Shown here one piece after another: positions 3,079 to 34,691 of a stretch of DNA of 40,471 nucleotides. Position 1 is the first letter of the stretch. The number at the start of each line of letters is the position of its first letter. The stretch lies in the IMG/VR virus record IMGVR_UViG_2565956717_000010, positions 1-40,471 of that record. One strand, given 5' to 3'. Source of the DNA: a virus (Duplodnaviria > Heunggongvirae > Uroviricota > Caudoviricetes). The position numbers were made by a program, and so were the translations under genes. Below the pieces are notes generated by a model. The model was not told where the DNA came from and searched no databases. It saw only the letters and a list, made by a program, of their open reading frames with translations.

Positions 3079-3360
3079 ACTTTCTCCTGTTTACTATCTA
3101 TAAGCCAGTCAATTATTGATGACTAACCCCCGCATAGTAAACCATATATGAATCATTATTGTTCCATATCATATATCTCAATAAAAGTACTAATGATTTT
3201 ACAGAACGAGCCAGCAGAGTGAGGGCAGTTGTACAGGAACCATAGACTTAATTTTGTATTTAATAATGCTATGGTGTAATAAACCTGAACATGTATTTAA
3301 AATACGTACTGATTCATGATAGAATTCAAGGATAACTTTTCACAAACTCCGTTTTTGATA

Positions 3361-6609: not shown

Positions 6610-6624
6610 TTACCTTTCAGGTAA
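6610..6624. promoter_or_regulatory. Operator-like palindrome TTACC-N5-GGTAA (site 1)
   Basis: Perfect inverted repeat TTACCtttcaGGTAA flanked A..T; in divergent region between tailspike start and the LexA-box gene. Confidence 0.45.
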
Positions 6625-6663: not shown

Positions 6664-6679
6664 CTGTATAAATATACAG
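6664..6679. promoter_or_regulatory. LexA (SOS) box
   Basis: CTGTATAAATATACAG is a perfect CTGT-N8-ACAG palindrome with AT-rich centre, 22 bp upstream of ATG 6701; overlaps -10-like TATAAA. Only such box found in the window. Confidence 0.7.
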
Positions 6680-6700: not shown

Positions 6701-6958
6701 ATGCAGCAGTATCACTATCCACTGGAAGACGGATTTACCGAAAGGATTCACACGCCGGGAGGCGTCAGGTCACTGGTGGAGGGATCGCACTTGATGAAAT
6801 TACTCCGGGATCTCGATAAGGATGGATTTAATGTCGATGGCCCACTTGCCGAACTGACTGCACTGATTAACTACGTCACCAGCTCACAGATGTCTATGCA
6901 GGATCTGCAAACACATCTCGACTATTGTGCCGAACAATTACGAAAGCAAACCAGATAA
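6701..6958 (+). CDS. Small protein homologous to the C-terminal domain of the adjacent antirepressor (SOS-controlled antirepressor candidate)
   Basis: 85 aa from ATG 6701 with GGAG RBS; C-terminal ~60 aa align with the C-terminus of the 7276-7926 product (GVRSLVEGSHLMKLLRDL...DLQTHLDY vs GVLGLTENSLLMNLLNQL...DIQTHAEY). Confidence 0.6.
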   Translation: MQQYHYPLEDGFTERIHTPGGVRSLVEGSHLMKLLRDLDKDGFNVDGPLAELTALINYVTSSQMSMQDLQTHLDYCAEQLRKQTR

Positions 6959-6989: not shown

Positions 6990-7004
6990 TTACCTTTGCG
7001 GTAA
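6990..7004. promoter_or_regulatory. Operator-like palindrome TTACC-N5-GGTAA (site 2)
   Basis: TTACCtttgcGGTAA, 32 bp after the stop of the small antirepressor-like gene. Confidence 0.4.
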
Positions 7005-7095
7005 ATTTACATCGCACTCCTCTTGTGCCATAGTAATCGGGCACTGGCAAAATCCAGTGCCGGGATTGGTCTCCCGGATTACTAAGTGGCGCATA

Positions 7096-7117
7096 CCACG
7101 CCAGACGTGGTTTTTTT
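7096..7117 (+). terminator. Intrinsic terminator after small antirepressor-like gene
   Basis: Stem CCACG/CGTGG with 5-nt loop followed by T7. Confidence 0.5.
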
Positions 7118-7275
7118 ATGCGTATAGCACAGTCATGCCAGAATTATGGTGGGCTGAATGGGGGTCCGAAAGGACGCCGGTACCACTTAGGCCGGTAAGA
7201 CCAACTCCGTTCAGTTCACCACCATCTGATTGGTCTCAGCGGTGGTGATGTAATTCGCTAAGTGGAGACGCCATA

Positions 7276-7926
7276 ATGAACGCTCAACTCATCCCCGTAT
7301 TCAACGGCACTATATCCAACGAAACCGCTCTTCTCGTTAATGCCCGTGATTTACACACTTTCCTCGATGTGGGTAAGCGATTTGCTTCGTGGATTGTCGA
7401 ACGAATTTCTGAATATGGTTTCGTTGAAAATCAAGACTTTATGATTATTTCCCAAGTTCGGGAAAAAATAGGCAGAGGCCGTCCTGCAAAAGACTACCAC
7501 CTCACCCTCGATACAGCCAAAGAGCTGGCGATGGTCGAGCGTAACGAAAAAGGTCGTCAGGTACGACGCTACTTCATTGAATGCGAGAAACGTTTAAGAC
7601 AACAAGAAACAAAAGTGGAGAAGGTCTTGTCAGGCTTCATGCCCGCCATTATGGAGGCGATCAAGCTGGAAGACAAAAAAGAATACAGTGCCCCACTGAA
7701 GCCCGGCTACCGTAGCCTGATTCATTCGCCGTCTGGTGTTCTCGGCCTGACGGAGAACTCACTGCTGATGAATCTGCTGAACCAGTTACAGGACGACGGG
7801 CACGACGTATCGGGCGCGGCGGCGGAGCTGACCACCATGTTCTGCTACATCGTCGGTGTGAGCAAATGCCTGCGTGATATCCAGACCCACGCGGAGTACA
7901 TCAACGACAAGGCAGGGTTCTTCTGA
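7276..7926 (+). CDS. Antirepressor, AntA-type N-terminal domain
   Basis: N-terminal LIPVFNGT...LVNARDLHTFLDVGKRFASWIVERISEYGFVENQDF matches the AntA/AntB antirepressor pattern as I remember it; GGAG RBS; C-terminal domain shared with 6701-6958. Confidence 0.7.
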   Translation: MNAQLIPVFNGTISNETALLVNARDLHTFLDVGKRFASWIVERISEYGFVENQDFMIISQVREKIGRGRPAKDYHLTLDTAKELAMVERNEKGRQVRRYFIECEKRLRQQETKVEKVLSGFMPAIMEAIKLEDKKEYSAPLKPGYRSLIHSPSGVLGLTENSLLMNLLNQLQDDGHDVSGAAAELTTMFCYIVGVSKCLRDIQTHAEYINDKAGFF

Positions 7927-7992: not shown

Positions 7993-8007
7993 TTACCTTA
8001 AAGGTAA
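7993..8007. promoter_or_regulatory. Operator-like palindrome TTACC-N5-GGTAA (site 3)
   Basis: TTACCttaaaGGTAA, 26 bp upstream of ATG 8034; overlaps a second palindrome GTAAACC-atg-GGTTTAC (8004-8020). Confidence 0.45.
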
Positions 8008-8033: not shown

Positions 8034-8243
8034 ATGGGATTTTGGTTCGCTCGTACAAAAACGAGGGATAATGCACCCAGCCCTCAGGCAAAAAATGCAG
8101 AAGTTCCGGCGTCAGCGCAGGTTAACAAGCGTGGTGGAGTATATATCTCATCACAGCAAATTTCTGAGCTTCCTGAGGTTAAGGAGATGCGTCGTCTCGC
8201 TGCTGCAATTGTTAAACAGGATCTTGCCACTGTAAGGAAATAG
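8034..8243 (+). CDS. Hypothetical small protein, first gene of cargo operon
   Basis: 69 aa; GAGGAGGAG RBS immediately upstream; stop overlaps the next start (TAGTG). A competing 74-aa ORF in another frame (8011-8235) lacks an RBS. Confidence 0.4.
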   Translation: MGFWFARTKTRDNAPSPQAKNAEVPASAQVNKRGGVYISSQQISELPEVKEMRRLAAAIVKQDLATVRK

Positions 8244-9109
8244 TGTTGTTAGCTCTTCTAATTATCCCCATTCTGGTTAGTGGTTATATTATGATAACCG
8301 CTAACCAGTATCATTATTTCCGTTTATACCGACATGAAGGCCAGCTTCTTTATATGAAAGTAGCTGCATTAGGTACATATTGCCTTGTTGCATCAGTAAT
8401 AATTGCAGCCGCTATAAAATATAAATGGCCTGATTTTCACCTAGTTCACGATATGGTGGAAACTTTTAATGTAACATCAAAACCAGAAACAGATAGAATT
8501 TACATGTGGCTGCTTCTTCTCTCAGCCACATCCATTTGCTTCTCTTTGTGTTATGTGTCTGTTGTGTGGGTGAAAGATTTTCTTCTTGGTTGTTTTTATA
8601 AACGTGATATTTACGAGCAAAAAACAGAGGCAATGAAGGCCAGAGTACTGCGAAAAACTTACTCGCAAGGTTCTTTAGACTTACTATTGCTTGATGCTAT
8701 TGAATCGGATCCTAAACGACCAATGTTGATTACTTTATCATCAAACAAAGTGTATGTTGGAATAATAAATGGTTCTGGTGAACCAACGGAAAATCAGGGT
8801 CCGCATCAGCACATATCTTTTGTTCCTTTAATGTCAGGATACAGGAACAAAGAAAACTTATCTGTCACATTCACTAATGCTTATCCAGGAGAAATACAGG
8901 TCAAGCGGACTGCAGCAATAAGAGGAATTAGCAGAAAGAAAGTGCTAGGACTTGAGATCATGGTGTCTATTGACGAAATAAGTTATATATCATGGTTTGA
9001 TTTTGAAGTATATAAAGCAACAAATAACAAAGTAGAATCCAGGGGGCACGTTATTCGTGTTACCAAAAATGGAAGAAATATATATCAAAGAAATAGCAAA
9101 AAAGAATAG
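8243..9109 (+). CDS. Hypothetical membrane protein (three N-terminal TM helices plus ~170-aa soluble domain), AT-rich cargo
   Basis: 288 aa; AAGGA RBS; three hydrophobic segments in first ~110 aa; markedly AT-rich codon usage compared with flanking structural genes; terminator directly after stop. Confidence 0.6.
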   Translation: MLLALLIIPILVSGYIMITANQYHYFRLYRHEGQLLYMKVAALGTYCLVASVIIAAAIKYKWPDFHLVHDMVETFNVTSKPETDRIYMWLLLLSATSICFSLCYVSVVWVKDFLLGCFYKRDIYEQKTEAMKARVLRKTYSQGSLDLLLLDAIESDPKRPMLITLSSNKVYVGIINGSGEPTENQGPHQHISFVPLMSGYRNKENLSVTFTNAYPGEIQVKRTAAIRGISRKKVLGLEIMVSIDEISYISWFDFEVYKATNNKVESRGHVIRVTKNGRNIYQRNSKKE

Positions 9110-9129
9110 CCCGCGCTGCGGGCTTTTTT
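9108..9129 (+). terminator. Intrinsic terminator after cargo membrane-protein gene
   Basis: Stem GCCCG/CGGGC with 5-nt loop followed by T6, starting at the stop codon. Confidence 0.55.
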
Positions 9130-9201
9130 GTGGACGAAACAAAAGTCAGTGCTACACTCATTGACGCCACATTGAGGTGGCTTATAGATGGAAATTTCAC
9201 A

Positions 9202-9363
9202 ATGAAAAAAGCATTTGCTGCACTGTTCGTTTTGTTGTCTCTGGTAGCTTCAACTCAGGCCTTTGCCGGTCGTTGTCAGCACGACAGCGATACTGCTGCT
9301 GACGGCTCCCGCTGCGGTGGGCGTTCTGCGGATTCCCGTCCGGGCGGCGGTGGCATTCGTTAA
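9202..9363 (+). CDS. Small secreted Cys/Gly-rich protein
   Basis: 53 aa from ATG 9202: signal-peptide-like MKKAFAALFVLLSLVASTQAFA followed by a short Cys-, Gly-, Asp- and Arg-rich segment. The longer ORF from 9130 is less plausible. Confidence 0.4.
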   Translation: MKKAFAALFVLLSLVASTQAFAGRCQHDSDTAADGSRCGGRSADSRPGGGGIR

Positions 9364-9386
9364 AAACAAGGCCGCGAAAGCGGCCT
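9362..9386 (-). terminator. Intrinsic terminator for minus-strand gene 9400-9858
   Basis: In minus-strand sense: stem GGCCGC/GCGGCC with 4-nt loop followed by TTGTTTTT; adjacent perfect palindrome GTGACATGTCAC (9387-9398). Confidence 0.45.
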
Positions 9387-9399
9387 GTGACATGTCACG

Positions 9400-9858
9400 C
9401 TACTTGCGAAATCTTTCTTTACCCTTCCAGCCAGTAGATGTTAGTTCAGGATGAATGGTTCCCAATATAAAGCCAACCATAGCGGAGCGAGGATCTTCTA
9501 TTTTATCCGTTAATTCTTCGGCATAACTCACAGGCAACCAAGCAACAAGATCACCAATCCTCAGCTTTGGTCCTTTGCTGTAAGATGAATCGGCAATAAC
9601 AAAAAATCCACCATCAGCTGAGCACACCTTCAGCATTGCCCTTTGTCTTCCAGAATCTAGCAAAACTGGCTGTTCCCCACTGGGACCAGGTATGATGATG
9701 GCTGGCATTGGTTTATTGGCTGAAAGGCTTGTGTCAAGATACTTACACGCATACTCAAAAGCTGAAAAGTTATCCTTAAAGATAAGAGGTTGAATTTTAT
9801 TGCTAACCTCCTTACCACCGATTAATCTGTTGATCATCTTCTTGAACATAAAGGTCAC
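9400..9858 (-). CDS. Hypothetical protein (cargo)
   Basis: 152-aa ORF with own terminator; no recognisable motif; start lies only 3 bp from a divergent gene, so start or reality is uncertain. Confidence 0.4.
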   Translation of the reverse strand: MTFMFKKMINRLIGGKEVSNKIQPLIFKDNFSAFEYACKYLDTSLSANKPMPAIIIPGPSGEQPVLLDSGRQRAMLKVCSADGGFFVIADSSYSKGPKLRIGDLVAWLPVSYAEELTDKIEDPRSAMVGFILGTIHPELTSTGWKGKERFRK

Positions 9859-9861
9859 CTA

Positions 9862-10302
9862 ATGATTAAGCCGATGCACGCTATTACAGCTACCGTTTTG
9901 TTTATCCTACCAATTTTTTCGTTTGCAAACGACATATGTTTTAAGAATTTAATAAATGAGGATATGTGTGCACATGCAAACAAAATCGCATCAGAAGCAG
10001 GAAAGTCACTTCCCATAAAATTGAATGATAATATGTCTATTGTTTCAATAAATGCAATACTAAACAAACTTTTAGTTGTAGCGCATCTTAATTACAACAA
10101 CAGCTATTTATCAAAAGTTTATAATGGTGATATAACCTTAGAAAATAAATTAAAGAGTGTGATGCGAAATTATTCAAAATCGAGCATTTGCTCCAACAGG
10201 CAAATGAAAGCATTTATTCACCTTGGCGGAGAGATTGAGTATAGGTATGTATTTAGTGATGGCAATATATTTGATACATACGCCATCACTAATTGTGAAT
10301 AG
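9862..10302 (+). CDS. Hypothetical secreted protein, strongly AT-rich (cargo)
   Basis: 146 aa; N-terminal signal peptide (ATVLFILPIFSFA); several Cys; AT-rich like 8243-9109. Confidence 0.45.
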   Translation: MIKPMHAITATVLFILPIFSFANDICFKNLINEDMCAHANKIASEAGKSLPIKLNDNMSIVSINAILNKLLVVAHLNYNNSYLSKVYNGDITLENKLKSVMRNYSKSSICSNRQMKAFIHLGGEIEYRYVFSDGNIFDTYAITNCE

Positions 10303-13300
10303 CTATTTCATCTGCTCTTCAACTTTATTTAGTAACGGTGATATCGCCCACAGGTTCTGAAAAGGTAGCATTTTACGGACCGCGTGGGTTTGCTGGCTGT
10401 CAAATTCTCCGTTAAGTACACCATTCGCAACCGTCGCGGCATCACCGCCAAGATCAAAGGTAGGACCAAGTAAAGCACCAATAGCATTACGACTCTGAAA
10501 CCTTGATACCGGAGGCGCACCAAACATCGCGCCAAGACCAAACCTACCGCCGCTTATGTTCTCAACGGTATTCAGCGGCTCAGAGAGCCAGCCAAGCATT
10601 CCGCCCCGGTCGATCCCCTCTTTCACAAGGTTATTCCAGCTGTAGTCGATATCGCGACCGCTTAACTTCTGTTTCATCATATATACCATTGAGCCAAGCG
10701 CAATCGTGCCAAGCGCACCAAGATAGAATGCAGCATCGCCCTGCTGGATACCAGATACCAGCACCCTGTTATGCTGTGCGAAGATAAACGTTTTGAACTG
10801 CGTGATCATCTTCCAGCCTTCTTTACTAAAAAACAGCGGTGTATCACCTACGCCAGGCGTTACAATCACTGAGTCTACATCTTTCAGCACTGCAGACTGG
10901 AAAATCTCTCTAGCGAAACGGTCATCCCACAGATGACTATGCCCGGTTAACAGCCCGTCCATATCCTCTCCGTGCTTCCCGAATTGCTCCCCGATTCGGC
11001 GCAGAACATCTTCATTGATGCCGACCTGTGCCATCTTCCGCATTTCACTTTTGGAGAGCGTGCCACCAGCAGAAACTTGGCGAGCCGCGTCAAGTATCCT
11101 CGACTGCACTATCATCCCGGACCATGATTTAAGTGCGCTGTTCCACTGATTCATCAGCGTCCAGTTACCGAATTTCTGCGTCATCCAGTTCAGACCTCGC
11201 TCAGCGGCGCTTCTCCGGCTATAGGGGTCAGTAAGATCCGCTATAGCCTTTGTACGCGTAGACAGGACATAATCAAGCCCAACGGCCATTTCTCGCAAAT
11301 CCCTAGTTGCAATTTTCACTGAGTCCATATTTTTAAGCATGCTTACCATTGGTCCGAGAGATTTTCTCAGGCCATGCTGCATCATCGGTCGCATCAGATC
11401 AGTTGCAGCGGAGACAGTCATTCCACCAAGCAAACGGAGGAAGTTAATATTCCTAGCAACTCGCCCGGCACGAACAAAGAAACTGCGTGGATCTTGAGGT
11501 GCGCCGTAAGTACCAAGCAGTCGATCACGCATAGCCGTAATATCCCTAATATCAGCCTCCCGTTGCTTCTCAAGAACTGCACGTCGTTTAGGTGTTTTAG
11601 CCTCTTTTATTAGCCGGGTATATTCCTCACTAACCTGACGGATTTGCTCCCCCATATCTTTACGGCCAAACTGCGCAGTCAGCTCAATTTCTGGTGCCAC
11701 CTGCCGGAGATAACTTTCCATGATGTAGTTAACATCTGATTCAAGAAAATCTTCTATACGCTCATCAGGAATAAGCAGCGTTCTGCTTTTAGTGAAACCA
11801 GCCCGACCAACGAGTCTCTCTGGGATAATATCGGCTGGTACAAGCCCGGAAGGTGCGCCTATTATTTTATTCACGATCTCGTCAGCAGCGTCCTCTGCTT
11901 CCTCTCGGGATAGAGGCTCCATCTGCTTCAGTGCTCGTTCGCGGCTTGCATTCAGCCTTGTGGTTGAATTTGCCCGTTTTTGCAGTCGGCGAAGCTCAGA
12001 ACGATATTTCCGTGGATTATCCAGCAACTCCATATGGCGCTGATAGACAGGAAGCTCACTCTTTGCCTGCGCTATATCATCAAGGCGTGTTTTAAGGTCA
12101 GAGCTTTCTTTCATCATTCTTGCCTGAAGTTTTTCTGATGAAGTCTCGGCCAACTCTTTTTCTATTCTTGTAAGACGCGCCTGTGTGTCAGTCTCCTGAG
12201 ATATAAGCTTATTTCGTTTATCCAGTTCTTCCATGAGTAGAATTTTTTTACCAGACCATTTCTCCGCTTCAGCGATTTCACTAGCGAGAGCATCAGCGCG
12301 CGGTGCCGATTCCTCTGCAGTTTTTAGCAATGAATTTATCCTTTCAATTCGCTGACCTGCTTTGTCAGCACCTTTGGCACTAATCCCTTGTATCCAGTTG
12401 GCAATTCGCCCTCTGAATTCAGTGCGGTCGGAAAGTATCTTATCGAACTTATAAATGCGGGGAAGATAACTTTTCGCCGTCACGACATCGATATCCTCAG
12501 GAAGGATCCCCAGTTCCTGCATACGGGCTTTTGTGGTCTCGAAAATGGGGCGGATTCTGGCGGCTGCTTGTGAAACCTCAGGAATATCACTCTGATCACC
12601 ACGGCGCATAGCCATGCCAACAGCTTCATTGAAATCAATAAAGTTCATCCTCTTCACGCCGCGGGCGCTAACAGATTTGCTGTACTGCTGGTAAGCATCA
12701 CGAGTGGCTTCCATCTGCTTATAAAGCATGGCGTCGTATTGCTTAATCTTAGTCTCGACTGCCGTAAACGTAGCCAACCCCTCATCATTTTTGGCGAAGA
12801 AATAGTTATTTTCGGCAAGCTGCTGGTTAATCTGACGGGAGACAAGAGATGGTGATTGAGCCAAGCGGCCAGCAGGAGTGACACTCAACGTTTTGTTAGC
12901 AAGTCCAAGTCCAGCGAGCTGTTCCTGATCGAGTGTGGTATTGAAAACCTGAGCTGCACCAATGCTTTGAGGAGAATCCATACCTCGCAAATGATTACCT
13001 ACTGAGTTAACCACTGCCTCGCGCGCGCTAGGTCCAGCAAGTAGCTGTGCACCAGCACCAAGGATCCCACCAACGAGAGCATCAACAACAACGTTCGATA
13101 CGCTCTCCATCGGTGAGCGAGCTTCCTGAGTGGCCTGTAATGCGGCTTCTGATACTCCCCCACCAGCAGCATTCGCCAGGGCAAAACGCCCTGCCGTCTC
13201 AGCAATACTTCCTCCACGCGCTACCGCCCCTACAGGGATAAACATTGCAGCCACATTAACCGGGTCTATCATTCCCATTGCTAAGCTTGAAATAGTACCA

Positions 13301-13692
13301 GCACCACCCATTTCAGATAGATATTCTCTATCTGTTCTTTGCTTATCGATTCGATGTTTAATTGCCATTGTTTCTTCATGCGAACCGGAGTTGATAAACG
13401 AATCTGCAAAATCTTCATAGCCTTTAATATCTGCTGCATCGTTATCAAATGGGTTATATCCTTCAACCCTGTCAAACTGACTGAAAGGAGCACTGGCAAT
13501 AAAGCTACCCAGCGTGTTATCTATACGAAATGCTGCTTGTCTAGACCTTTGAACGCGTTGATCACTGGTAAATGGGTTCACAGCAGAAAGCAAAGAAGGT
13601 GTTTCCATATAGAAATTACTGTCATCAGGTGCTGCTATTTGCTGAATATCCTCGCCAAGCAACTCTTTAGGATCCTGTTCATATATCGGCAT
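10303..13692 (-). CDS. Large internal virion / DNA-ejection protein (T7 gp16-like position)
   Basis: 1129 aa; long coiled-coil middle; last and largest of a translationally coupled internal-protein series upstream of the tail fibre, as in T7 gene order. Confidence 0.6.
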   Translation of the reverse strand: MPIYEQDPKELLGEDIQQIAAPDDSNFYMETPSLLSAVNPFTSDQRVQRSRQAAFRIDNTLGSFIASAPFSQFDRVEGYNPFDNDAADIKGYEDFADSFINSGSHEETMAIKHRIDKQRTDREYLSEMGGAGTISSLAMGMIDPVNVAAMFIPVGAVARGGSIAETAGRFALANAAGGGVSEAALQATQEARSPMESVSNVVVDALVGGILGAGAQLLAGPSAREAVVNSVGNHLRGMDSPQSIGAAQVFNTTLDQEQLAGLGLANKTLSVTPAGRLAQSPSLVSRQINQQLAENNYFFAKNDEGLATFTAVETKIKQYDAMLYKQMEATRDAYQQYSKSVSARGVKRMNFIDFNEAVGMAMRRGDQSDIPEVSQAAARIRPIFETTKARMQELGILPEDIDVVTAKSYLPRIYKFDKILSDRTEFRGRIANWIQGISAKGADKAGQRIERINSLLKTAEESAPRADALASEIAEAEKWSGKKILLMEELDKRNKLISQETDTQARLTRIEKELAETSSEKLQARMMKESSDLKTRLDDIAQAKSELPVYQRHMELLDNPRKYRSELRRLQKRANSTTRLNASRERALKQMEPLSREEAEDAADEIVNKIIGAPSGLVPADIIPERLVGRAGFTKSRTLLIPDERIEDFLESDVNYIMESYLRQVAPEIELTAQFGRKDMGEQIRQVSEEYTRLIKEAKTPKRRAVLEKQREADIRDITAMRDRLLGTYGAPQDPRSFFVRAGRVARNINFLRLLGGMTVSAATDLMRPMMQHGLRKSLGPMVSMLKNMDSVKIATRDLREMAVGLDYVLSTRTKAIADLTDPYSRRSAAERGLNWMTQKFGNWTLMNQWNSALKSWSGMIVQSRILDAARQVSAGGTLSKSEMRKMAQVGINEDVLRRIGEQFGKHGEDMDGLLTGHSHLWDDRFAREIFQSAVLKDVDSVIVTPGVGDTPLFFSKEGWKMITQFKTFIFAQHNRVLVSGIQQGDAAFYLGALGTIALGSMVYMMKQKLSGRDIDYSWNNLVKEGIDRGGMLGWLSEPLNTVENISGGRFGLGAMFGAPPVSRFQSRNAIGALLGPTFDLGGDAATVANGVLNGEFDSQQTHAVRKMLPFQNLWAISPLLNKVEEQMK

Positions 13693-25745: not shown

Positions 25746-25760
25746 TTACCTTTCAGGTAA
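25746..25760. promoter_or_regulatory. Operator-like palindrome TTACC-N5-GGTAA (site 4)
   Basis: TTACCtttcaGGTAA, identical core to site 1; TTGACA hexamer 16 bp upstream on the plus strand (25724-25729); between portal operon and tRNA. Confidence 0.45.
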
Positions 25761-26082: not shown

Positions 26083-26159
26083 GTGGCATTAGCTCAGTTG
26101 GACAGAGCAACCGCCTTCTAAGCGGTTGGTCGCAGGTTCGAATCCTGCATGCCACGCCA
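26083..26159 (+). tRNA. tRNA-Arg (anticodon UCU)
   Basis: 77 nt, hand-folded cloverleaf: acceptor GTGGCAT/ATGCCAC, D-stem GCTC/GAGC, anticodon stem ACCGC/GCGGT with loop CTTCTAA, T-arm GCAGG-TTCGAAT-CCTGC, discriminator G, encoded CCA. Acceptor stem differs from the host argU I remember. Confidence 0.85.
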
Positions 26160-26475: not shown

Positions 26476-27951
26476 TTAAGCATAGGGATCGTAATCTGTG
26501 ATGGCCTTGCCTTGCTGGTTCTGCTGCCCGGGAATTCGCAGACGCCTCGACACAGGGAACGCAAACGTCAGCAGTAGCGCATCGCCTTTACCCGGCGAAC
26601 GCCCAAGCCGCTCCTTGATATCCTCCTTCGGTTCGATAACGATTTTACCGTCCACGCGAACTTTGTACTCTGCCGCCGACAGGTCGTCTGCAGTTTCCTG
26701 GTCATCCAGCATGCCGCCCAGCCTCAGCCATGTCTTACATGAGTTGAACATCTCCCCACGCTTGTTAAGCATCTGCGGGTCAGTAGACGCGCCACCGAAC
26801 GGAACAAGTTGCCATGTACGACCCCAGCCGTCACCGATTGACTTCAAACCGGTTCCGTAACCGAAGTCGATGAACACCGCGTCAGCCTGATACTGGTCTT
26901 CAAAGTCAGCGATACGCTTCGCCATAATCAGATCGTCGGTAGTCTTGTTGCCAGTCCACAGCACCTTACTGTGTAGCCCCTGCCGCAGGTATATCACAGC
27001 GTCATCAACGCCGGAGTATGCCGGGTCAACGCCGATTATCACCGGAGCATGTGCAACCTGCGCAGCGGTTACCACCCGTTTCATTGCCTCGTCAGTAAGA
27101 CCGGTAGGGATAAACTGCAATTCAGATGCATCAGGGAATATGCCACGCACACGGATTTTAACGAAGTCGCTGTCTTCCCCGTAGTCATCAACCCATTTCT
27201 GCAACTGCTGTTTGTTGGTACCTTCCACCGTCCGACTGTCAATCTGCGCAGTTTTCCAGCGGTGTTTATACTTGCGGAAACATTCACGGAAACGTCCGGT
27301 ATTACGTGTAGGGTTTCCGAACGCCACCCAGATAATCTCAGTGTCTTCGTCCGTAAGCGCACCCTCAGCAACTTCCCACACCAGATCCGCAATGTTCGAC
27401 GCTTCATCAAACACCACGATGATGCGTTTGCGCTCGTTGTGTAGTCCGGCGAATGCCTCAGTGTTGTGCTCAGACCAGGGGATTGCGTCAGCTCGCCACC
27501 GCTTGTCGTGCCCAGGATCATTGCTGTACATCGCAGTAGCGGTACAGGTAAACCAGTCTTTCGTGATAGCAAGGTTCGACCACTTGATAATTTCCGGCCA
27601 GGTCTTCGTTCGTAGCTGGTTGTCGGTGTTGGCGGTCACCACGACCTTACAATCCTCGCAAGTGGACATGCCCCAGTTGATCAGCATTGAGATGAATGCG
27701 GATTTACCAATACCGTGACCAGAAGCGCGTGCCAGCATAAGCGGCTGATAGCGCGTCTCTGGATTCTGCAGGTGATCACGTATCTCTCGGAACGCATCAG
27801 CCTGCCACTGACGTGGACCGGTGGCATGTGCCAGTTCAGTACCCTCTTCCCCCCACGGGAACGCATAGAGGGCATAGCCAAGCGGATCGTGAGTGAACCC
27901 TGCAATATCCTCGATCAACTGCTCTTCAGGAGATAACGCTGTATCTGTCAC
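26476..27951 (-). CDS. Terminase large subunit
   Basis: 491 aa; Walker A-like ASGHGIGKS; GTG start overlaps small-subunit stop (GTGA). Confidence 0.8.
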   Translation of the reverse strand: MTDTALSPEEQLIEDIAGFTHDPLGYALYAFPWGEEGTELAHATGPRQWQADAFREIRDHLQNPETRYQPLMLARASGHGIGKSAFISMLINWGMSTCEDCKVVVTANTDNQLRTKTWPEIIKWSNLAITKDWFTCTATAMYSNDPGHDKRWRADAIPWSEHNTEAFAGLHNERKRIIVVFDEASNIADLVWEVAEGALTDEDTEIIWVAFGNPTRNTGRFRECFRKYKHRWKTAQIDSRTVEGTNKQQLQKWVDDYGEDSDFVKIRVRGIFPDASELQFIPTGLTDEAMKRVVTAAQVAHAPVIIGVDPAYSGVDDAVIYLRQGLHSKVLWTGNKTTDDLIMAKRIADFEDQYQADAVFIDFGYGTGLKSIGDGWGRTWQLVPFGGASTDPQMLNKRGEMFNSCKTWLRLGGMLDDQETADDLSAAEYKVRVDGKIVIEPKEDIKERLGRSPGKGDALLLTFAFPVSRRLRIPGQQNQQGKAITDYDPYA

Positions 27952-28544
27952 TGATTACCATCCTGACGTTCTTTGAGTCGCTTCCTGGCTGCTGCTATGC
28001 GATCAGCAATTGTCACATTCACATTAACATCCAGACGTTCTTTGAACGCGTTGACATCAACATGCTTACCAATCAGCTCAAGGTTCTTCACCTTGTCAGG
28101 CCATTTAATTTTTTTGAGGATTGTCTCTATCGAATCCTCGTTCATGTTCATGATGGTCGATGACAGATCAAAGCCACTAAGCGTAGTGCGCCAGATTTTC
28201 GGCCACTCGCGGATTGGCTTAAGGCTCCCATCGTCGTTGAGGATGTCGATCACGTCCATCTGGTCGATCTCCACCAGGCGCATGAGAACGTAATCAGCAC
28301 TGACGCGCATTCGTTTGTTGCGCTCCTCCATCAACTCGGCAATCCGTTTCTGAATGCGTTCATCGCGCATCATGACACTGGCTTTAACTGCCGCTGTATT
28401 TGGGGAGAATCCTGCATTAATCGCTGCCTGAGTCTGGTTTTCAGGCGTTTTGATGTATGACTGGCAATAAGCCTCCTGCATTGCTGTTAGTGGCTTAAAT
28501 TGCGTTGATTTGCGTTTATAGGTTTTAGGTTCAGCAGGCATCAT
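27948..28544 (-). CDS. Terminase small subunit
   Basis: Conserved-looking KPLTAMQEAYCQSYIKTPENQTQAAINAGFS segment; start placed at Met-27 of the ORF because the upstream 26 codons are translated from the tandem palindrome repeats. Confidence 0.6.
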   Translation of the reverse strand: MMPAEPKTYKRKSTQFKPLTAMQEAYCQSYIKTPENQTQAAINAGFSPNTAAVKASVMMRDERIQKRIAELMEERNKRMRVSADYVLMRLVEIDQMDVIDILNDDGSLKPIREWPKIWRTTLSGFDLSSTIMNMNEDSIETILKKIKWPDKVKNLELIGKHVDVNAFKERLDVNVNVTIADRIAAARKRLKERQDGNQ

Positions 28545-28558
28545 AACCACCGTGGTAA
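28544..28558. promoter_or_regulatory. Operator-like palindrome, one mismatch (TAACC-N5-GGTAA; site 9a)
   Basis: Directly abuts the terminase small-subunit start; part of a tandem pair inside direct repeats GTGGTAATAGT. Confidence 0.35.
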
Positions 28559-28561
28559 TAG

Positions 28562-28576
28562 TTACCGTTGTGGTAA
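28562..28576. promoter_or_regulatory. Operator-like palindrome TTACC-N5-GGTAA (site 9b)
   Basis: TTACCgttgtGGTAA, 18 bp upstream of the terminase small-subunit start. Confidence 0.45.
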
Positions 28577-28618
28577 TAGTACCATGCAAAATAAAGCCGC
28601 CATAGTTGGCGGCAGTAT

Positions 28619-28831
28619 TCAAAGTCCATCAAATTCATCGTAAAAACTCTCGTCAAGATACCCTTCCCATTTACCGCGAATGAAAATTACATCCTCGCCG
28701 CAAGGGTGCTGACTGTCGATAACTATATCCCTCCTGACGCAACCATACTTATGCATGAGAAATTTAACCTCTTTCGGAAAATTTGCTGAGTTATCTCTCA
28801 TATCTTCAAGGTCGTAGCGTATTTTTGGCAT
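28619..28831 (-). CDS. Hypothetical protein
   Basis: Start set at MPKIRYD with AAGGTG RBS; no recognisable motif. Confidence 0.4.
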   Translation of the reverse strand: MPKIRYDLEDMRDNSANFPKEVKFLMHKYGCVRRDIVIDSQHPCGEDVIFIRGKWEGYLDESFYDEFDGL

Positions 28832-31622: not shown

Positions 31623-31637
31623 TTACCCCTGAGGTAA
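31623..31637. promoter_or_regulatory. Operator-like palindrome TTACC-N5-GGTAA (site 5)
   Basis: TTACCcctgaGGTAA, 4 bp upstream of ATG 31619 (minus strand). Confidence 0.45.
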
Positions 31638-31684: not shown

Positions 31685-31699
31685 TTACCTCATAGGTAA
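31685..31699. promoter_or_regulatory. Operator-like palindrome TTACC-N5-GGTAA (site 6)
   Basis: TTACCtcataGGTAA flanked A..T; between the P-like gene stop and the next gene. Confidence 0.45.
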
Positions 31700-33334: not shown

Positions 33335-33349
33335 GATTAATCTCCGCTA

Positions 33350-33550
33350 TCAGCTTGAATGTTGTGGGGAGGAATTAATCATGATCTGCTTAATCTCTGC
33401 CCTGATACGACGGTTTGATTCCATGGTGCACTCAACACAGTGTCCGTTGTAAACCCAACGTTCACTGTCATGTCCGTGCTTACATGGTTTTCCGGTGTAG
33501 TAGCGTTTAAGTCCGCGCTTTGCGGCATCAATACGTGTAATGATTTCCAT
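33350..33550 (-). CDS. Small Cys/His-rich (zinc-binding-like) protein
   Basis: Start set at MEIITRID (ACAGGG RBS); motif KPCKHGHDSERWVYNGHCVEC; first gene after a tR1-like hairpin. Confidence 0.4.
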   Translation of the reverse strand: MEIITRIDAAKRGLKRYYTGKPCKHGHDSERWVYNGHCVECTMESNRRIRAEIKQIMINSSPQHSS

Positions 33551-33700: not shown

Positions 33701-33931
33701 TCATGAGTAGAAGAAGTATGCCAGTTCTGCTTTTGAGCGCAGCCATTGTCTTGTTTTACAGGCTTTAAAAAGCCCATTCATCAATACTTTACCTGGCATT
33801 TTGCGCTTACCTGTTAAGTGAGTCTGGATATAGTGACTCGTCGTTCCGGCTTCCTGTGCGAAGGCTTCACGCTCATCCGGAGTAAGTGCAAGCCAGTGCT
33901 TTTTGAAATCGAAATGTCCGTTATCGCTCAT
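33701..33931 (-). CDS. Cro-like small regulator (first gene of rightward-type operon)
   Basis: 76 aa, divergent from the repressor candidate; promoter spacer contains palindrome site 8a between TTGTTA (-35-like) and TATTAT (-10-like). Confidence 0.45.
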   Translation of the reverse strand: MSDNGHFDFKKHWLALTPDEREAFAQEAGTTSHYIQTHLTGKRKMPGKVLMNGLFKACKTRQWLRSKAELAYFFYS

Positions 33932-33967
33932 AGCTATTGCCTGATATTTATTTCAGATAATAAATAT

Positions 33968-33982
33968 TCACCCATAAGGTAA
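33968..33982. promoter_or_regulatory. Operator-like palindrome, imperfect (TCACC-N5-GGTAA; site 8a)
   Basis: In divergent immunity region; overlaps predicted Cro-like promoter spacer. Confidence 0.45.
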
Positions 33983-33998
33983 CAAAAATCAAGGATAG

Positions 33999-34013
33999 TT
34001 ACCTATGGGGTGC
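33999..34013. promoter_or_regulatory. Operator-like palindrome, imperfect (TTACC-N5-GGTGC; site 8b)
   Basis: Middle of three sites in the divergent immunity region. Confidence 0.4.
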
Positions 34014-34015
34014 AT

Positions 34016-34030
34016 TTACCTGTTGGGTAA
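34016..34030. promoter_or_regulatory. Operator-like palindrome TTACC-N5-GGTAA (site 8c)
   Basis: TTACCtgttgGGTAA, 56 bp upstream of repressor-candidate ATG. Confidence 0.45.
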
Positions 34031-34085: not shown

Positions 34086-34670
34086 ATGAAAAGTATCCAG
34101 GACGTCCGCAGGCAAAATCTCAACGACTTGATCGACCGTGAATTCAATGGTGTTCAGACGCGGATGGCAGAAAAACTTGGAACTCAGGCAAATCTGGTAA
34201 ACCGCTGGGCTCTTGGCAAGAAGGTTATCGGCGACCAGGTTGCGCGAAAAATTGAAGCTGCCGCCAATAAACCCCGTAACTGGCTTGATATCGATCGCTC
34301 GCTTTCTCAGGAAGGTTTTCAGCCTGTCGGCCCAAGCGACATTGGCCAGCTGGCGGCTCACAACCTGGAACGCTGGATGAGCGAAAGCCGCGACCTTTCA
34401 ACACAGGGAAAACTTCACCGCGCATCCGGCGTCGCCCAGGTGACAATCAGCCGCCTGTTAAACAATGAGGTCAGCGTTTCCATTTCCACCCTGGAGAATG
34501 TTGCATCCGCATTCGGGCGTCACGGCTATGAATTACTGATTCACCCGCACGACCCTGCGACCATCAACTATGACCGCTCGCGCTACGCATTGTTACCCGA
34601 AACCGAGAAAGCAAAGATCGAAAGTTACATTGAATTTGTCATCAACCAGAACGAAAAAAACAAACAATAA
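34086..34670 (+). CDS. Double-HTH XRE-type regulator, candidate lysogeny repressor without autocleavage domain
   Basis: Two HTH-like segments (GVQTRMAEKLGTQANLVNRWALG and GVAQVTISRLLNNEVSVSISTLENVASAF); no S24 peptidase motifs; divergent from Cro-like gene across three palindromes; own terminator. Confidence 0.55.
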   Translation: MKSIQDVRRQNLNDLIDREFNGVQTRMAEKLGTQANLVNRWALGKKVIGDQVARKIEAAANKPRNWLDIDRSLSQEGFQPVGPSDIGQLAAHNLERWMSESRDLSTQGKLHRASGVAQVTISRLLNNEVSVSISTLENVASAFGRHGYELLIHPHDPATINYDRSRYALLPETEKAKIESYIEFVINQNEKNKQ

Positions 34671-34691
34671 AATCATATTTTTCAGTAAGTA

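Follow-up and report, generated by a model that had tools for sequence, protein, structure and literature searches.

The DNA analysed here, hereafter the window, spans positions 1–40,471 of the IMG/VR virus record IMGVR_UViG_2565956717_000010, and our subject is rep, an open reading frame (ORF) at 34086–34670 on the plus strand (stop codon included) that begins with ATG and encodes a protein of 194 amino acids, Rep. The start codon is supported by the alignment of 52 homologues, among which the N-terminal residues M1-K2-S3-I4 do not vary. Three palindromic operators separate rep from a Cro-like gene on the opposite strand, a terminator and a recombination operon follow it, and two antirepressor genes lie far to its left.

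Megablast and tblastn searches assign the window to the phiV10 group of the genus Uetakevirus (epsilon15-like podophages). Its immunity region is 97–98% identical at the DNA level to those of phiV10, vB_EcoP_PAS61, ZX5 and the O157 typing phages 9 and 10, and Rep is 100% identical to the annotated repressors of phiV10 (gp40), vB_EcoP_ZX5 (ORF21), PAS61 and others. The GenBank record of phiV10 bears the note "two helix-turn-helix motifs" for gp40. The same immunity region (879 bp) is present in 539 of 5,426 complete E. coli genomes (~10%), where the protein is usually labelled only 'helix-turn-helix domain-containing protein' and its partner, the antirepressor Ant, goes under 'hypothetical'.

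Rep and its relation to the SPC32H repressor

Rep is homologous over its full length to the repressor of Salmonella phage SPC32H, whose structure has been determined both by itself (PDB 5D4Z) and bound to its antirepressor, Ant (PDB 5D50). A phmmer search of PDB sequences aligns residues 1–190 with residues 2–197 of 5D50_A ('Repressor', 199 aa; E=4e-42) and also recovers 5D4Z, a construct comprising SPC32H Rep residues 92–198 (E=4e-20); in a profile search of PDB sequences, SPC32H Rep is matched at E=2.2e-65. Global identity between the two repressors is 42%, made up of 53% in the N-terminal domain, 32% in the middle domain and 43% in the C-terminal tail. For the identical protein of ZX5, overexpression of ORF21 brought free phage to zero and lowered endolysin and holin transcripts by 99.99% and 99.97%, respectively (PMC9782041). 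We are confident that the gene encodes the maintenance (immunity) repressor of a Uetakevirus prophage of the phiV10 type, orthologous to SPC32H Rep and to gp38 of epsilon15, and that this repressor is controlled by an Ant antirepressor and does not cleave itself. The sequence-only reading of this DNA had proposed just such a non-self-cleaving lysogeny repressor, inactivated by a LexA-controlled antirepressor, and the homologous SPC32H Rep/Ant pair lends that proposal its support.

The protein divides into three parts. Residues 1–72 (34086–34301, plus strand) form an N-terminal helix-turn-helix (HTH) domain, the putative DNA-binding domain, with the recognition helix ANLVNRW; N36, R40 and W41 of this helix are invariant in the family. 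Residues 85–152 (34338–34541, plus strand) form a second domain, of the HTH_3 type, whose homologue in SPC32H Rep is the middle dimerisation domain (MDD), and residues 153–194 (34542–34667, plus strand) a C-terminal tail homologous to the tetramerisation and Ant-binding domain (CAD) of that protein. In SPC32H the N-terminal domain binds DNA (DBD), the middle domain dimerises, and the C-terminal domain mediates both tetramer formation and antirepressor binding (PMC9986798). On DNA, SPC32H Rep is a tetramer; Ant, also a tetramer, engages two Rep dimers and disrupts that assembly (PMC9638917). By homology, the second HTH of the window's Rep would thus be a dimerisation domain, and residues ~153–194 would constitute a third, tetramerisation and Ant-binding module.

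Sequence families recover this architecture in part. Scanned whole against Pfam, Rep gives HTH_3 and HTH_26 matches at residues ~104–147 and a weaker YdaS-like/HTH_3 signal at ~21–67. Scanned alone, residues 85–152 score 27 bits for HTH_3, above the cut-off of 23; residues 1–72 fall below threshold (HTH_3, 16 bits; YdaS-like HTH, 20.5 bits), and the last 49 residues match no Pfam family. NCBIfam offers a weak match of residues 106–192 to the RstR family (19.7 bits against a cut-off of 80), which we take as a hint and not as membership, and PADLOC returns nothing meaningful for Rep. We also considered a recent internal duplication as the source of the two HTH domains and rejected it, because BLASTP finds no similarity between residues 1–80 and 81–153. 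The two XRE-type HTH segments described in the sequence-only reading therefore hold at the level of sequence, one at 27 bits and the N-terminal one below threshold, but that reading missed the third, C-terminal module, and by homology the second HTH would serve dimerisation.

An AlphaFold2 (AF2) model of the Rep monomer, built on 52 homologues (mean pLDDT 82.5), shows N-terminal helices at residues 4–19, 24–31, 35–43 and 50–59, a disordered linker at 74–83, a helical bundle at 83–151 and a C-terminal helix at 172–193. This is the three-module fold of SPC32H Rep, two helical domains and a C-terminal helix, whose module roles are those given above (PMC9986798). Searched against the PDB with Foldseek, the model reaches E<0.001 only with the SPC32H Rep entries 5D50 and 5D4Z, with TM scores of 0.71–0.76 for its C-terminal half; generic XRE HTH domains rank after these entries. 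The C-terminal tail of Rep falls inside the region covered by the 5D4Z construct.

A peptidase domain of the kind found in self-cleaving repressors is absent from Rep. Pfam finds no Peptidase_S24 in it at E≤10, and neither the profile search of PDB sequences nor Foldseek against the PDB finds an S24/LexA/cI catalytic domain. The Pfam scan has a positive control, since it does detect Peptidase_S24 in five relatives that match only the N-terminal domain, and in a further relative, P0138. Moreover, only ~42 residues, predicted to be helical, remain after the second HTH of Rep, compared with ~115 residues in the beta-rich S24 domain. Rep thus has the N-terminal HTH domain of lambda cI and LexA-type repressors and, like them, diverges from a cro-like gene over multiple operators; it lacks their C-terminal Peptidase_S24 domain with its Ser-Lys dyad and cleavage site. 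Lacking an S24 domain, Rep would not be able to sense RecA* itself. The earlier statement that the protein shows no S24 peptidase features is borne out by both the domain and the structure searches.

The relatives of Rep suggest how this architecture came about. When 1.84 billion representative proteins were searched with a profile, about a dozen clusters with the full Rep architecture came up, plus many partial matches. Those that match only residues 1–78 and bear Peptidase_S24 are P0157, P0163, P0139, P0177 and P0186, and P0138 (290 aa) has a Rep-type N-terminal domain, a middle HTH and Peptidase_S24 in a single chain; the N-terminal domain of Rep is 35–40% identical to those of such S24-bearing repressors (e.g., P0157, P0138). 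Other proteins, of 110–175 aa, match only residues 85–191 (e.g., P0110, at 39% identity). P0102, which is such a stand-alone 'middle HTH plus tail', occupies the cI position of another prophage: its gene diverges from those for a small HTH protein and replication proteins, and lies upstream of exonuclease and RecT genes. That prophage has different repeats, CATATCTGGTT, and TTACC-N5-GGTAA was not found there. In Rep, a DNA-binding domain of the cI type seems to be followed, at the place where its relatives have S24, by a complete module that resembles a small repressor; we read this as a replacement of S24 in Rep because the relatives that share its N-terminal domain carry the peptidase.

Operators, promoters and neighbouring genes

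The operators around rep follow the motif (A)TTACC-N5-GGTAA(T). Counted at no more than one mismatch, the window holds 12 copies of the motif where 0.76 are expected (16-fold), and none of 100 shuffled sequences reaches 12. The spacer of 5 nt is the right one, since a pattern with a 6-nt spacer gives chance-level matches only; a repeat search with a 6-nt seed misses these operators because their arms are only 5–6 nt long. The recognition helix (A/Q)NLVNRW and the TTACC half-site are both unchanged in the window, in SPC32H and in a Klebsiella phage. With helix and half-site both invariant, the genus offers no covariation between them to draw on.

Three of these palindromes lie between rep and the Cro-like gene. 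O1 (TCACCCATAAGGTAA, 33968–33982, one mismatch) overlaps the -35 element and spacer of a leftward promoter-like site, TTGTTA-17-TATTAT (33957–33985, minus strand), placed by consensus scan only and attributed to the Cro-like/replication operon; equivalents of O1 are found in SPC32H, epsilon15 and the Klebsiella phage BUCT711. O2 (TTACCTATGGGGTGC, 33999–34013, two mismatches) is centred 31 bp from O1, and O3 (TTACCTGTTGGGTAA, 34016–34030, perfect) 17 bp from O2; the corresponding centres in SPC32H are 30 and 17 bp apart. The Cro-like gene itself (33701–33931, minus strand) encodes 76 aa and belongs to phrog_35 (E=5.6e-13), and leftward of it follow replication genes, DnaT-like and lambda-P-like (Pfam DnaT, Phage_lambda_P). 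The place of rep in the cI position, divergent from a Cro-like gene over three palindromes, is therefore as first described.

So is its strand, which it shares with the recombination operon downstream. An intrinsic terminator follows rep (34691–34710, plus strand; also annotated in phiV10), and beyond it the rightward operon comprises two small ORFs, a YqaJ-type exonuclease gene and recT. Ahead of this operon two perfect operators (34728–34742 and 34790–34804, plus strand), 62 bp apart, bracket its promoter; a consensus scan places a strong promoter-like site there, TTGACA-17-AATTAT (34762–34790, plus strand). A second pair with the same distance of 62 bp (31623–31637 and 31685–31699, minus strand) brackets a promoter-like sequence, TTGATT-17-TTTAAT, inside the leftward operon. 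Such 62-bp pairs are kept in SPC32H (33604/33666 and 35972/36034) and in epsilon15 (32555/32617 and 35907/35969), and their geometry fits a tetramer that would touch two sites across a promoter.

Further Rep-type sites are found elsewhere in the window. One (6610–6624) is directly upstream of the ant promoter region, and another (6990–7004) abuts a promoter-like site at 7006–7034, ahead of an IsrK-like RNA. A perfect site at 7993–8007 lies after the large antirepressor gene and upstream of the ORF at 8034–8243. Another perfect site (25746–25760), with counterparts at 3175 in SPC32H and 2932 in epsilon15, is near a tRNA gene and the start of the structural operon. Two adjacent sites at 28544–28558 (one mismatch) and 28562–28576 (perfect), at the upstream end of an ORF at 27948–28622 on the minus strand, seem, from gene order, to match those upstream of the small terminase subunit gene in SPC32H and in epsilon15 (position 12). 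ATTACC-N5-GGTAAT operators in a conserved layout are thus present in the window, and SPC32H, epsilon15 and BUCT711 have the same layout.

Some of these sites have been annotated before. The epsilon15 record (AY150271.2) lists seven sites as 'repressor; lysogeny', one of them upstream of gp19 (= ant), and gives gp38 an HHpred match to 5D50_A. Missing from this annotation are the three sites that lie between the repressor gene and gp39 (33341, 33358 and 33388; span 33341–33402) and the partner site at 35969.

Two other features of the window may be recorded here. The tRNA, found by both ARAGORN and Rfam, is a tRNA-Arg (anticodon TCT, 26083–26159) and lies ~320 bp from the operator at 25746. Between the ant cassette and an ORF of 1129 aa (10303–13692) lies a moron-like block (8034–10302) with ORFs of 69, 288, 152 and 146 aa. 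These match only PHROGs of unknown function (phrog_5739, 3630, 9944 and 8772); none has a Pfam family above the gathering cut-off or a PADLOC match.

Two antirepressor genes

The small antirepressor gene, ant (6701–6958, plus strand), encodes 85 aa and lies 27.4 kb from rep. Its product is 88% identical to SPC32H Ant (PDB 5D50_E, E=4e-47). A LexA box (CTGTATAAATATACAG, 6664–6679) lies 22 nt upstream of the start codon. The pattern CTGT-N8-ACAG is matched three times in the window, where 0.53 matches are expected; the one at 6664–6679 is AT-rich and near the LexA consensus. The order upstream of ant (Rep-type operator, TTGCA, LexA box, ribosome-binding site (RBS)) aligns with that in SPC32H, and comparable sequences in epsilon15, Tyrion and the Klebsiella relative BUCT711 show that LexA box and operator are kept across the genus. 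The consensus scan reports no -10/-35 elements for ant. The phage records with a Rep homologue and those with an Ant homologue, 35–37 in number, are practically the same set, and the window has the cognate pair, with a small Ant preceded by a LexA box. In SPC32H, Ant synthesis is LexA-dependent and induction is described as Ant-mediated (PMC7380047).

A natural variant touches the same element. SPC32H and its sister isolate SPC32N differ at two positions in 2.6 kb; one difference, at locus position 1171, is a C to A change in the LexA box that turns ACAG into AAAG (CTGTATGTTTATACAG becoming ...ATAAAG). This is presumably the clear-plaque variant reportedly analysed by Kim and Ryu in 2013.

Two observations on the small Ant family stand apart from its regulation. 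Its PHROG, phrog_450, is of 'unknown function', and most phage records label the protein 'hypothetical protein' despite its structurally characterised orthologue in SPC32H. Divergence between the window phage and SPC32H is also lopsided: Ant is 88% identical, compared with 42% for Rep and 32% for the middle domain of Rep. To judge from these sequences, Ant may be constrained by something besides its own Rep, or may be active across diverged Reps.

A second, larger paralogue is encoded downstream (7276–7926, plus strand; 216 aa). It joins an AntA N-terminal domain (Pfam AntA, E=7e-28) to an Ant-like C-terminal domain, residues 135–211, which matches 5D50_E (E=9.5e-14) and is 40% identical to the small Ant. 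The gene has no LexA box of its own; the promoter-like site at 7006–7034, placed by consensus scan, stands beside a Rep-type operator. The LexA-controlled antirepressor paralogue that had been placed 27 kb from rep is thus confirmed for the small Ant, and the description does not extend to the larger paralogue. Between the promoter-like site and the gene lie an IsrK-like small RNA with a terminator (7041–7117, plus strand; Rfam RF01394, 67.7 bits with the gathering score at 50) and, after it, a C4 antisense RNA (7142–7226, plus strand; RF01695, 61.2 bits with the gathering score at 45). Two exposed C4 segments, CCACTTAG and AGACCAA, are complementary to 7258–7265 and 7230–7236, a pair of sites covering the RBS for the ATG at 7276, and equally to 7082–7089 and 7066–7072, inside the IsrK-like RNA; the pairing counterpart of CCACTTAG is CTAAGTGG. 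Two features that mark P1 immI are therefore present: a C4 RNA upstream on the same strand, and loops complementary both to sites covering the RBS and to duplicate sites upstream.

The large antirepressor is modular. Its N-terminus is of the AntA type in the window and of the Bro-N type in ZX5 (ORF4, 2074–2769), and the Ant-like C-terminal domain is almost identical in the two. The ZX5 annotation sets an 'ash family protein' over the stretch with the IsrK-like and C4 RNAs. When the ORF4 anti-repressor of ZX5 was overexpressed, the prophage count fell from 1e9 to 1e6, a ~1000-fold drop (PMC9782041). The Salmonella Uetakeviruses have the small Ant only: each of their records shows a single Ant place, compared with two or three in the E. 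coli lineage. As judged from its domains and upstream elements, AntA-Ant probably gives a second input onto the same repressor, one not gated by a LexA box of its own.

Alternatives, induction model and known systems

It might be argued that both HTH domains bind DNA, the second recognising another class of site or degenerate operators in addition to acting as a scaffold for dimerisation. Of the two domains, the second scores higher for HTH_3, residues Q118 and R123 of its 'recognition helix' vary little or not at all, and in the stand-alone homologues P0102 and P0110 it is the sole HTH, with one of these genes in the cI position of a prophage. The repressor of SPC32H tells against this, its middle domain being described as the dimerisation domain and its N-terminal domain as the DNA-binding one (PMC9986798, PMC9638917). 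Moreover, the TTACC half-site accompanies the invariant N-terminal NLVNRW helix in every relative examined, and is missing from the prophage in which the stand-alone module is found, the repeats there being CATATCTGGTT. We regard a second DNA-binding HTH as unlikely. A conventional RecA-sensitive repressor with a cryptic cleavage activity, to which the antirepressor would be a mere accessory, has a precedent in P22, where an ant gene coexists with a cleavable repressor (PMC7380047), and the N-terminal domain of Rep is indeed homologous to those of S24-bearing repressors (35–40% identity). Yet a scan that detects S24 in those relatives gives no such signal for Rep, in agreement with the PDB profile and fold searches, the ~42 helical residues after its two domains compare poorly with the ~115 residues of a beta-rich S24 domain, and induction of SPC32H is ascribed to Ant (PMC7380047); this reading is very improbable. 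Hardly credible, finally, is an XRE-type antitoxin or accessory regulator with no role in immunity. The BP9 record does name the identical protein 'antidote protein VapI', and weak matches to HigA and HipB appear in NCBIfam and the PDB; against these stand the absence of any toxin partner of the ORF, its cI position between operator clusters, its full-length homology to a solved phage repressor and the shut-off of lytic genes by the identical ZX5 protein (PMC9782041).

The assignment as an Ant-controlled, non-self-cleaving repressor is thus the one we retain, and several points weigh against it. A rep (PRM-like) promoter could not be placed convincingly, as the consensus scan reports none, and the Shine-Dalgarno (SD) sequence of rep is poorly placed (GAGG, 14 nt upstream). 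The homologue that bears the mechanism, SPC32H Rep, has an identity of only 42% to the window's protein, falling to 32% in the middle domain, and it is from this homologue that we infer the RecA insensitivity, Ant binding and oligomeric state of the window's Rep. The mechanistic details for SPC32H were themselves drawn from secondary descriptions (PMC9638917, PMC9986798, PMC7380047). Finally, because stand-alone relatives with the middle HTH and tail hold the cI position, the second HTH would descend from a DNA-binding domain, and it might retain some affinity for DNA.

On the retained reading, the switch would work as follows. Rep, by homology, would bind ATTACC-N5-GGTAAT operators through its N-terminal HTH, dimerise through its second, HTH-like domain and tetramerise through its C-terminal tail. 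Occupancy of O1–O3, operators identified from sequence, would silence the leftward Cro/replication promoter predicted by the consensus scan. The 62-bp pairs, flanking the predicted exonuclease/RecT promoter and the internal leftward promoter, and the sites that front ant, the RNA/large-ant cassette and the late regions would be further candidate targets. Upon DNA damage, inactivation of LexA would vacate the box ahead of the 85-aa ant gene and allow Ant to be made; Ant would then bind the C-terminal domains of Rep and take the tetramer off DNA, as has been shown for SPC32H. The C4 antisense RNA could pair over the RBS of the AntA-Ant gene.

From this scheme we draw a proposal with three joint parts: that Rep and the antirepressors form a two-input toggle, that the second HTH has a DNA-binding or looping role, and that Ant cross-induces heterologous prophages. 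Taken together, these are put forward tentatively, and we would not expect all three to hold. Since Rep-type operators front ant (6610) and flank the AntA-Ant cassette (6990 and 7993), Rep may co-repress both antirepressors. A little Ant that slips past LexA or the C4 RNA would then remove Rep, more Ant would follow, and induction would become irreversible. At the operator pairs 62 bp apart, the second HTH might still bind DNA or take part in looping. Cross-induction of heterologous Uetakevirus prophages by Ant is conceivable because Ant is so much better conserved than Rep (88% against 42%). Only the functional circuit would be new, because the epsilon15 record already marks the operator ahead of ant as a predicted site for the repressor.

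The Rep/Ant switch as such is already known, through structure and mechanism for the SPC32H homologue and through annotation and overexpression for the identical protein. The Rep system is not new: the phiV10 and epsilon15 records already name the repressor, note its two HTH motifs, report the match to 5D50 and predict the sites at which the repressor binds; nor does any open question become newly testable, because mechanism and structure have been published for the SPC32H homologue. The main value of the present analysis is a correct annotation of the immunity region in ~10% of complete E. coli genomes. A switch of the SPC32H type predicts that these prophages are SOS-inducible via LexA and Ant and not by repressor cleavage, and that induction may be reversible; prophages with a common, conserved Ant may also cross-talk.

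The closest parallel is SPC32H, a Salmonella phage of the genus Uetakevirus, whose Rep/Ant antirepression system was reportedly described by Kim and Ryu in the Journal of Virology in 2013 and by Kim et al. in PNAS in 2016. The two phages share full-length homology of Rep and Ant, a three-part Rep, the same gene neighbourhood, and the same operators in number and spacing, with three between rep and the cro-like gene, 62-bp pairs at promoters, and a LexA box with a Rep-type operator before ant. They differ in that Rep has diverged, most of all in its middle domain (32% identity). Compared with the Salmonella phages, the E. coli lineage adds AntA-Ant, the IsrK-like and C4 RNAs and two extra operators. 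The ZX5 paper departs from an SPC32H-based view in two respects: it ascribes DNA binding to the C-terminal HTH of ORF21, and it gives an anti-repressor role only to the large Bro-N/Ant protein, leaving the small LexA-controlled Ant 'hypothetical'.

With repressors of the lambda cI, P22 C2 and LexA type, Rep has in common its genome position, its divergence from a cro-like gene over three operators and a link of induction to the SOS response. It differs in having no S24 domain, so that no RecA*-stimulated self-cleavage is expected and the SOS signal would arrive through LexA control of the antirepressor. Where cI-type repressors are cleaved, Ant of SPC32H inactivates its repressor by protein binding (PMC9638917, PMC7380047). 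The system of phage 186 with Tum and those of the Gifsy and Fels-2 prophages are like that of the window in logic. Their repressors differ in architecture, as neither 186 CI nor those of Gifsy are known to carry tandem HTHs. What these systems share with the window is a non-cleavable repressor, a small antirepressor repressed by LexA and inactivation through protein–protein contact (PMC7380047). The locus of the large paralogue, for its part, resembles immI of P1 and P7 and isrK-orf45-anrP of Gifsy-1 in its succession of promoter, IsrK-like RNA with terminator, C4 RNA and antirepressor gene, and, as in loci of the P1 immI/Gifsy-1 type, the C4 loops are complementary to two target pairs, one of them over the RBS (PMC4825925). 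The window differs from immI and the Gifsy-1 locus in that its antirepressor has a C-terminal domain of the SPC32H Ant type and its cassette is flanked by Rep-type operators.

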